From a virus (Duplodnaviria; Caudoviricetes), in the IMG/VR virus record IMGVR_UViG_3300021197_001319, positions 1-60,226 of that record: a stretch of 60,226 bases of DNA. One strand, 5' to 3'. Of the stretch, positions 49,561 to 49,650 are shown one piece after another (positions within the stretch are counted from its first letter, which is position 1; each line of letters opens with the position of its first letter). Position numbers and translations under genes: made by a program. The notes beneath the pieces were generated by a model. The model saw nothing but the letters and a program-made list of their open reading frames with translations, was not told where the DNA came from and did not search any database.

Positions 49561-49650
49561 TTTGGGCCGCGACCCTCTCTCCTCTCTCTCCTCCAATCGC
49601 GGCACCAAAGAGCGGGCAGTTTAGAAATAGACTGCCCGCTCACTATTTGT
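49561..49650 (+). ncRNA. Putative 3'-UTR small RNA: anti-SD hairpin plus terminator-like hairpin
   Basis: TTTGG-GCCGCGA[CCCTCTCTCCTCTCTCTCCTCCAA]TCGCGGC-A-CCAAA, then GAGCGGGCAGTTTA-GAAA-TAGACTGCCCGCTC. Confidence 0.55.

Follow-up and report, generated by a model that had tools for sequence, protein, structure and literature searches.

Which messages could the 3' end of an early phage transcript act upon? The question is raised by a 60,226-base stretch of the IMG/VR virus record IMGVR_UViG_3300021197_001319 (hereafter the window, meaning the whole stretch of DNA that was analysed), in which an early gene for a P-loop NTPase, the ATPase gene, is followed by two hairpins, the first with a large loop complementary to the extended Shine-Dalgarno (SD) sequences of several early genes, the ATPase included. 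Temporal control in lytic phages is understood mostly through proteins, such as sigma appropriators, nucleases (RegB) and repressors (RegA). The comparative evidence presented here points to an RNA regulator within an early mRNA, which would read a lineage-specific extension shared by SD sequences. An initial annotation of the locus had proposed an RNA directed against early ribosome binding sites (RBSs), and at its core this interpretation is supported, as far as sequences can speak, by the conservation of the structure and by the co-variation of the displayed motif with the RBS. The reading that we consider best, and on balance probable, is that an anti-RBS RNA, carried in the 3'UTR (3' untranslated region), base-pairs with early mRNAs, including the one it belongs to, and probably acts as their repressor.

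Two hairpins behind the ATPase stop codon

The ATPase gene lies on the + strand at 48523..49557 (344 amino acids (aa), Walker A GPPGVGKS) and ends with the stop TAA at 49555-49557. Folding of 49555-49660 with RNAfold returned two hairpins with a minimum free energy (MFE) of -44.2 kcal/mol, compared with -20.9 +/- 2.8 kcal/mol for 200 dinucleotide shuffles, none of which folded as well (z = -8.2; 0/200). Hairpin 1 (49561..49609, + strand), the putative anti-RBS display, has 12 base pairs (bp), formed by 49561-49572 with 49597-49609 and interrupted by a single bulged A at 49604. It begins 4 nucleotides (nt) past the stop, as its initial assignment to the 3'UTR requires, and therefore leaves no room for a promoter of its own. 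Its 24-nt loop, CCCTCTCTCCTCTCTCTCCTCCAA (49573..49596, + strand), consists of C and U only, ending in AA; it contains CCUCC and two overlapping copies of CTCTCTCCTC, at 49575-84 and 49584-93, and is the sole mixed C/T run of at least 13 nt in the window. Hairpin 2 (49610..49641, + strand) is terminator-like and pairs 49610-49623 with 49628-49641 in a 14-bp stem around a GAAA loop. Sequence and fold reproduce, base for base, the stem, loop and tetraloop hairpin of the initial description, and both loop repeats lie where it had placed them.

The 3' arm of hairpin 2 holds a -35-like TAGACT, with which a promoter-like TAGACT-17-TATAAT begins; 7 nt later stands the ATG (49664) of a GDSL-like gene (49628..49666 from promoter to start codon, + strand). 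As this gene has no SD and its ATG follows the TATAAT so closely, its mRNA looks leaderless, and probably is. The spacing from TATAAT to ATG is conserved at 5-7 nt in relatives.

Conservation was assessed in 68 related loci (L numbers), retrieved from IMG/VR by the ATPase protein at 50-100% identity. By our reading, 25 of them carry a hairpin with a CU-rich loop after the ATPase gene, so that the recurrence in relatives which the initial annotation expected is found, together with compensatory changes in the stem; the element is conserved across phages whose ATPases are merely 50-65% identical. In a MAFFT alignment of 19 distinct copies of hairpin 1, all nine stem pairs tested had changed on both sides, and 95.9% of cells were paired, compared with 30-40% when the 3' partners were slid; the covariation score was reached by none of 500 shuffles. 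While this stem drifts with compensation, the sequence of the loop is conserved. For hairpin 2, 100% of the cells were paired in 14 distinct copies, and 6 of 13 pairs had changed on both sides. G-U pairs occupy 17 cells in hairpin 1 and 18 in hairpin 2, and because such pairs would be A-C mismatches on the other strand, the conserved structure is that of + strand RNA, in the sense of the ATPase mRNA. An RNA of the minus strand, for example a GGA-rich sponge of the CsrA type, was rejected: its fold is poorer (z = -4.5 vs -8.2), the 17 and 18 G-U cells of the two stems turn into A-C mismatches, and all neighbouring genes, as well as the U-runs of the terminators in relatives, are on the + strand.

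An exact scan of the whole of IMG/VR for the loop word of this hairpin (type 1) gave 25 stretches, of which 20 are the present element and five are unrelated. Eighteen of these 20 lie on contigs already found via the ATPase, and the other two at contig ends.

Further features accompany the hairpins in relatives. The apex of hairpin 2, GTTTAGAAATAGAC (window 49621-49634), is invariant in 14 distinct sequences (L002, L004, L007, L010, L014, L015, L023-L027, L031, L063 and L126), apart from one A-to-G change in L015, and the lower stem covaries; the apex may be more than a loop, either a site for protein binding or a promoter element. Several relatives, namely L002 (about 1830-1852), L004, L010, L011 and L025, have one or two copies of a motif like AAAAATTTGACGG immediately upstream of their hairpin 1; this motif is absent from the window and has no -10 box at promoter distance. 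In several relatives, an extra hairpin of a second type, with the loop CUCUCUCUUCUUC, stands between the ATPase gene and the type-1 hairpin (L010 4067-4119; L011 2179-2237; L025 866-914; L027 3775-3823; L031 about 680-720).

Complementarity between the loop and early ribosome binding sites

The ATPase gene is preceded by a sigma-70-type early promoter cassette (48457..48498, + strand), composed of GGTTGACA, 16 nt, TG-TATTAT and the leader AGTAAGTT. It is one of six near-identical cassettes in the window, at 3431, 42404, 43002, 44869, 47564 and 48457, in which GGTTGACA, 16 nt and TGnTATnnT are followed by the conserved leader AGTAAGTT; the set is reminiscent of the promoter-early stem-loop (PeSL) cassettes of T4-like phages. 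Behind four of the six, in agreement with the initial annotation, the RBS (GAGGAGAGA, GAGGAGAGAGA or GGAGAGAGA) is a contiguous 9-11-nt Watson-Crick complement of the hairpin-1 loop; the remaining two have AAGGAGA and AAGGAGTAAC.

The extended SD of the ATPase itself, GGAGAGAGA (48513..48521, + strand), is a 9-nt complement of the loop, and in the MFE model of the full ATPase mRNA it is predicted to pair with it. The other candidate targets, also on the + strand, are the RBS GAGGAGAGA of a 71-aa early gene (3479..3487; ATG 3494), the same word before a 114-aa early gene (42451..42459; ATG 42463) and GAGGAGAGAGA before a 124-aa early gene (43049..43059; ATG 43061). The last is the best candidate, with a match of 11/11 and the lowest duplex energy in the window (-20.7 kcal/mol). 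On the + strand GAGGAGAGA occurs only at 3479, 42451 and 43049, and twice more as the complement of the loop, giving five matches where 0.12 are expected (0/100 shuffles reach five). The word GGAGAGAG, found at 43051 and 48513 and twice in the loop, gives four matches where 0.66 are expected (1/100 shuffles reach four). Elsewhere in the 60 kb, the matching RBS words are confined to the complement of the loop itself. At 47598-47625, the early gene at 47623 starts with TTG, and its RBS AAGGAGTAAC is unmatched by the loop of the window; this is the extended RBS carried by the ATPase itself in the relatives L016-L021.

When the 5' leaders of related loci are compared, the 3' motif is seen to change together with the extended SD of the ATPase. 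The RBS GGAGAGAG(A) of the window and its closest relatives goes with the 3' motif CUCUCUCC, and in L014, L015 and L023 the RBS GGAGGAGCAA goes with UUGCUCCUCC, again in the loop. The RBS AGGAGUAACUAU of L019-L021 has its complement, AUAGUUACUCCU, directly after and overlapping the stop codon, with no hairpin; that of L022, AAGGAGCAA, has UUGCUCCUU directly after the stop, and L069 combines GAGGGCA with UGCCCUC (7 nt). In the GGAGCGA class, a more distant and larger group of 23 loci, the RBS GGAGCGAA goes with UUCGCUCC; here GAUUCGCUCC stands once or twice after the ATPase gene, and from it an RBS of the GGGAGCGAAUC type was predicted beforehand. The leaders then read (U)AGGAGCGA(A) in 23 of 23. 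Two hairpins, whose stems vary from phage to phage, present the motif of this class in 9-nt loops, and the second of them is an intrinsic terminator that has a U-run. The co-evolution of loop and RBS suggested initially is thus borne out, the displayed motif following the early RBSs from class to class, and the classes represent at least four clear switches.

The position of the motif relative to the stop codon also varies. In many loci of the GGAGCGA class (L046-L056, including L048 and L052), the stop UGA of the ATPase begins the first GAUUCGCUCC motif, and in the AGGAGUAAC class the stretch of complementarity includes the stop UAG; in both classes, a terminating ribosome would therefore cover the anti-RBS. 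In L034 the hairpin is an unrelated one, and 11 nt of its loop complement the locus's own leader, immediately upstream of the SD. With a single-locus shuffle p of 0.003 among 45 loci tested, this 11-mer is by number suggestive only, and it gains weight from its location in a hairpin loop.

Both gene ends were available for 58 loci, 45 of them distinct, and a contiguous complement of at least 7 nt was present in 37 of the 45. Matches of only 4-6 nt were found in element-less control loci (L029/30, L041-43, L039/40) and in the cultured phages T2, KARL-1 and a Vibrio phage. After grouping at 80% protein identity, one locus from each of 12 clades entered a test with 20,000 permutations. The mean longest match was 7.75 nt for cognate and 5.55 nt for non-cognate pairs, and the mean duplex energies were -15.7 and -12.1 kcal/mol, respectively; neither cognate value was reached by any permutation, a result which is not a count of independent events, because the clades share ancestry and related clades share motifs. 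For 13 of 21 loci, MFE folds of full-length mRNA models predict that the RBS pairs with the 3'UTR, at a distance of about 1.1 kb.

A culturable phage may have a related arrangement. In PA5oct (L128, MK797984.1 248047-250541), the RBS region GGAGTAGCAT shares an 8-nt complement (AGTAGCAT) with the 3' arm of a hairpin after the stop. As a single case with a chance probability of roughly 2%, this match is suggestive only of a distant version of the same arrangement. Four published non-coding RNAs of PA5oct map elsewhere in its genome (PMC7318152; here and below, published systems are described from the available excerpts of the cited papers).

One message or several

The match to the mRNA that carries it is the most constant feature of the element among the sequences compared, and several genomes hold further matches. 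In the related contig G001 (299 kb, 83% complete), about 12 genes, distributed over both strands, are preceded by GGAGCGA, and in several cases the same early promoter cassette stands before it; opposite-strand RBSs apart, its complement TCGCTCC is found on the sense strand only in the two copies behind the ATPase gene, and the best site, of 13 nt, is at another gene than the ATPase. In G003 (131 kb), AGGAGAGA is found at 11 RBSs, most of which belong to the early block surrounding the ATPase. Among the 3-nt extensions that follow a GGAG SD, the matching one is the most frequent in the window (AGA, 5/28), in G003 (AGA, 12/54) and in G001 (CGA, 10/111); in G002 AAA is the most frequent (7/71), and the matching TAA is second (6/71). 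Neighbouring early genes match over 9-10 nt in L023 and L012. On the contig of L027 (G004), the loop of the extra type-2 hairpin is complemented perfectly over 14 nt at positions -22 to -9 of a large open reading frame (ORF), which lies 59 kb away and encodes more than 497 aa with a start resembling a signal peptide.

A purely cis interaction of the 5'UTR with the 3'UTR, as in icaR, might account for the constancy of the own match. The 3'UTR would then fold on the SD of the ATPase alone, giving autoregulation by a block of translation and/or by a duplex that invites cleavage, and the shared SDs would be a by-product of homogenised cassettes. The ATPase RBS is indeed complementary in most clades, the match of L034 is in gene-specific 5'UTR sequence, and the ends of the mRNA are paired in the 13 of 21 models cited above. 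In G002 (204 kb, AGGAGUAAC class), the 12-nt match of the AGGAGUAACUAU class reaches the AUG and is unique to the ATPase's own RBS, which fits a purely cis mechanism there. Moreover, icaR provides a precedent (PMC3868564), and early cassettes are near-identical repeats, as described for PeSLs (PMC4122927). Against this, L024 and L027 keep the element although their own ATPase RBS matches over only 5-6 nt, whereas neighbouring early RBSs match over 8-10 nt. Other genes offer better matches, of 11 nt at 43049 in the window, 13 nt in G001 and 14 nt in G004, and in three genomes the commonest extension after GGAG is the matching one, including genes far from the ATPase and on the other strand. L024, L027 and the shared tags are not explained without action in trans on other messages, and we consider an exclusively cis mechanism unlikely.

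The effect might also have the opposite sign, the RNA masking GGAG-type SDs against a RegB-like or host endonuclease, or joining the mRNA ends for stability, and so prolonging early expression. T4 RegB cuts GGAG in early SDs and secondary structure protects from it (PMC3014915), all extended SDs seen here contain GGAG, GAGG or AGGA, and in the hbs mRNA of Bacillus subtilis an interaction of 5' and 3' UTRs is reported to control ribonuclease action (PMC5737220). However, a masked SD is not translatable, so that protection would cost expression. RegB (PF10715) was found in none of five related contigs (38-83% complete), a search in which control genomes also gave nothing, so that its absence does not follow. 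A protective role appears improbable to us.

That the element has no RNA-RNA function at all is strongly disfavoured, and we regard it as very improbable. It would then be a composite terminator and promoter, a cassette of the PeSL type with a low-complexity insert, whose complementarity to SDs is incidental, since GGAG finds a complement in every sequence rich in CUCC. Hairpin 2 and TAGACT-17-TATAAT together agree with the PeSL layout (PMC4122927), CU-rich shuffles match GA-rich RBSs fairly well (shuffle means of 5-6 nt), and other GA-rich sites have similar duplex energy. The matches nevertheless extend past the SD core into class-specific bases (GCAA, UAACUAU, CGAA) which are not CU/GA repeats, cognate pairs exceed all 20,000 permutations, the motif is unique in each genome examined, and it is the loop sequence that is kept as the stem drifts. 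Equally remote is a main role against host mRNAs, in which the loop would mimic the 16S anti-SD or host cuckoo-type small RNAs (sRNAs) and sequester host SDs during host shut-off, with phage RBSs secondary: the anti-SD core CCUCC is in the loop, alphaproteobacterial cuckoo/CcsR RNAs show CCUCCUCCC in hairpin loops (PMC8034643) and the phage is marine, but the class-specific extensions follow the phage's own RBSs rather than a universal SD, and the GGAGCGA and AGGAGUAAC classes would pair over merely 4-5 nt with a generic SD. As the main explanation, a polypyrimidine protein site or a DNA triplex was rejected, since complementarity is kept in the AGGAGUAAC, GGAGCGA and L034 classes, none of which is homopyrimidine.

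The favoured reading thus remains an anti-RBS RNA acting on several early messages. Its anatomy is that of an antisense regulator, with the complement in an open loop on a stable stem, placed where an early transcript has its protected 3' end. The untranslated 3' part of the early ATPase mRNA would form a regulatory RNA module, in which hairpin 1 would expose a large single-stranded loop complementary to the extended SD 'tag' of the ATPase mRNA and of other early phage mRNAs, while hairpin 2 would end the RNA and protect it. The module would build up during early transcription, either attached to the mRNA or as a stable 3' fragment, and would pair with early RBSs, in cis on its own mRNA and in trans on others, occluding them. 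The likely result would be a self-limiting shut-off of early protein synthesis which spares mRNAs that have other SDs or are leaderless. Here the timing, the stable fragment and repression as the sign of the effect are what we infer.

Several points weigh against this reading, besides the cis-only pattern of G002 and the shared ancestry behind the permutation result. The matches are short (7-13 nt) and of low complexity in the CU/GA class, the per-locus shuffle p is often merely 0.01-0.2, and a match of at least 7 nt is lacking in 8 of the 45 distinct loci. As the ATPase homologues of T2, KARL-1 and the Vibrio phage have no such element, it is not tied to the function of the ATPase. In a search of the 60 kb for duplex energy, with bulges and G-U pairs allowed, the four RBSs rank 1, 5, 9 and 10 among 144 sites at or below -11 kcal/mol, and several GA-rich sites in coding regions, away from any RBS, have similar energy; such a ranking alone does not discriminate, and within the window specificity rests on contiguous matches and on position, not on energy. 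The genes behind the cassettes are taken as early from their promoter consensus only. With one 3'UTR on each mRNA and about ten target mRNAs, the targets would be in excess, unless the fragment were more stable than they are. In favour of the reading, at the RNA level, contigs from RNA libraries of separate studies bridge the stop codon into hairpin 1 (X15 record 8, X17 record 24) and one crosses the whole intergenic region (X16 record 16), but these contigs (Logan) indicate presence only, not RNA ends, strand or level, and carry-over of DNA is possible. Contig cover drops after about 49540-49650 in 3 of 4 runs; the contigs are uninformative on the 3' end, and this drop was not used as evidence.

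A wider proposal is put forward more tentatively. A large clade of uncultured marine and freshwater T4-like and jumbo phages may use an RNA-based early shut-off, an RNA counterpart of RegB, in which a lineage-specific SD 'address tag' and the matching anti-tag in the 3'UTR loops of one early mRNA co-evolve as a private code. Such a code would set the early messages of the phage apart from host messages and also from phage messages that are late or leaderless. If so, extended SDs can serve as regulon tags read by RNA, and the locus would stand among the few examples of 5'-3' UTR or 3'UTR-sRNA control from virulent phages. It would also supply natural, mutually orthogonal pairs of tag and anti-tag for synthetic translational control, and a simple rule on sequence would allow early genes to be recognised in the genomes of uncultured phages.

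The window comes from an uncultured marine T4-like or jumbo phage. It has a CheckV completeness of 17% and a G+C content of 38.5%, and encodes a large terminase, a UvsX-like recombinase and a run of small early-type genes, by which it is recognised as a fragment of a large T4-like or jumbo myovirus. Marine and seawater metagenomes of several studies hold near-identical DNA, and a blastn search of the window against cultured phage DNA gave no match, records of the window's own genome possibly having been left out. No tRNA or tmRNA was found in a scan of the window. The ATPase matches phrog_1250, of unknown function (E = 9.7e-84), and no Pfam family; with tblastn, 1307 records of cultured phages yielded homologues, none of which reached 60% identity, the closest being that of the Pseudomonas jumbo phage PA5oct (39%), followed by those of T-even-like phages. 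Directly upstream of the ATPase promoter, at 47922-48461, lies a gene for an Rv2179c-like 3'-5' exoribonuclease (PF16473, E = 1.9e-36), and an RNA-processing enzyme is thus encoded next to the candidate regulatory RNA.

Relation to known systems

For T4-like and jumbo phages, keyword searches of open-access full texts returned no paper that describes a 3'UTR element complementary to RBSs. In the search of the whole window against Rfam (cmscan, gathering thresholds) there were no matches, and when E values up to 10 were admitted for 49450-49750, five weak matches at chance level appeared (best frnS, 23.9 bits against a cutoff of 60), with the cuckoo, AbcR and c4 families not among them. The comparison with AbcR and cuckoo RNAs made in the initial annotation therefore holds as an analogy of mechanism and fails as an assignment to those families, since no Rfam match was obtained and the features that define cuckoo RNAs are missing.

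The closest bacterial parallel is the icaR mRNA of Staphylococcus aureus, in which a C/U-rich anti-SD motif of the 3'UTR complements the SD of the same mRNA, with a proposed block of initiation (PMC3868564). Here too the 3' motif is complementary to the mRNA's own SD, over 9 nt in the window and at least 7 nt in 37 of 45 distinct relatives. The phage 3'UTR differs in being about 90 nt long, with the motif in the loop of a covarying hairpin beside a terminator, and in belonging to a lytic phage; its motif also fits a set of early genes, some of them better than its own, and exists in several co-varying classes. The icaR type is defined by pairing which blocks initiation and creates a substrate for RNase III; pairing in the phage is a prediction of MFE models (13 of 21).

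Cuckoo/CcsR RNAs resemble the element in displaying anti-SD sequences in hairpin loops and in originating from the mRNA 3'UTR of an upstream ORF (PMC8034643), and their tandem hairpins recall both the GGAGCGA class and relatives with two CU-loop hairpins. The ar14-type RNAs of this group have no similarity to the phage element in sequence or covariance model. Their two hairpins each have a CCUCCUCCC loop, whereas the window has one CU loop without that 9-mer and a second loop of GAAA. The adjacent ORF encodes DUF1127 in the CIN1 context and a P-loop ATPase (phrog_1250) in the window. Furthermore, the present element is borne by a phage, and its motif varies by lineage, tracking the phage's own RBSs.

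Among phage systems, T4 RegB is an early nuclease that brings the early phase to an end by cleaving GGAG in the SDs of early mRNAs, including the one for RegB (PMC3014915). The likeness lies in an early gene product acting on GGAG-type SDs of early mRNAs, its own among them; the difference is that RegB is a protein nuclease, and the agent proposed here is a pairing RNA. The c4 antisense RNA of P1 and P7 (PMC12197685) is likewise a phage RNA displayed in loops, which pairs around a phage RBS and blocks translation, but it serves the immunity of temperate phages with ant as its single target, whereas the present element lies in the 3'UTR of a lytic-type phage and has many candidate targets. Hairpin 2 with a sigma-70-like promoter, and the repeated early cassettes of promoter, leader and SD, resemble the PeSLs of T4-like phages (PMC4122927; PMC2839356). 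Of the PeSL layout of stem-loop, sigma-70-like promoter, SD and start, hairpin 2 and TAGACT-17-TATAAT are present, but the downstream gene has no SD and looks leaderless. PeSLs are described as recombination and regulatory cassettes; in the excerpt of PMC4122927 no SD-complementary loop is mentioned, and hairpin 1 has no counterpart there.

Features of 3'UTR-derived sRNAs are present as well: the element shares the 3' end and the terminator-like hairpin of its mRNA, its seed is exposed, and complementarity to several mRNAs is conserved (in the window, G001, G003, L023, L012, L024 and L027). By analogy, the element would work like the icaR 3'UTR, the cuckoo/CcsR RNAs and c4, while belonging to none of them.

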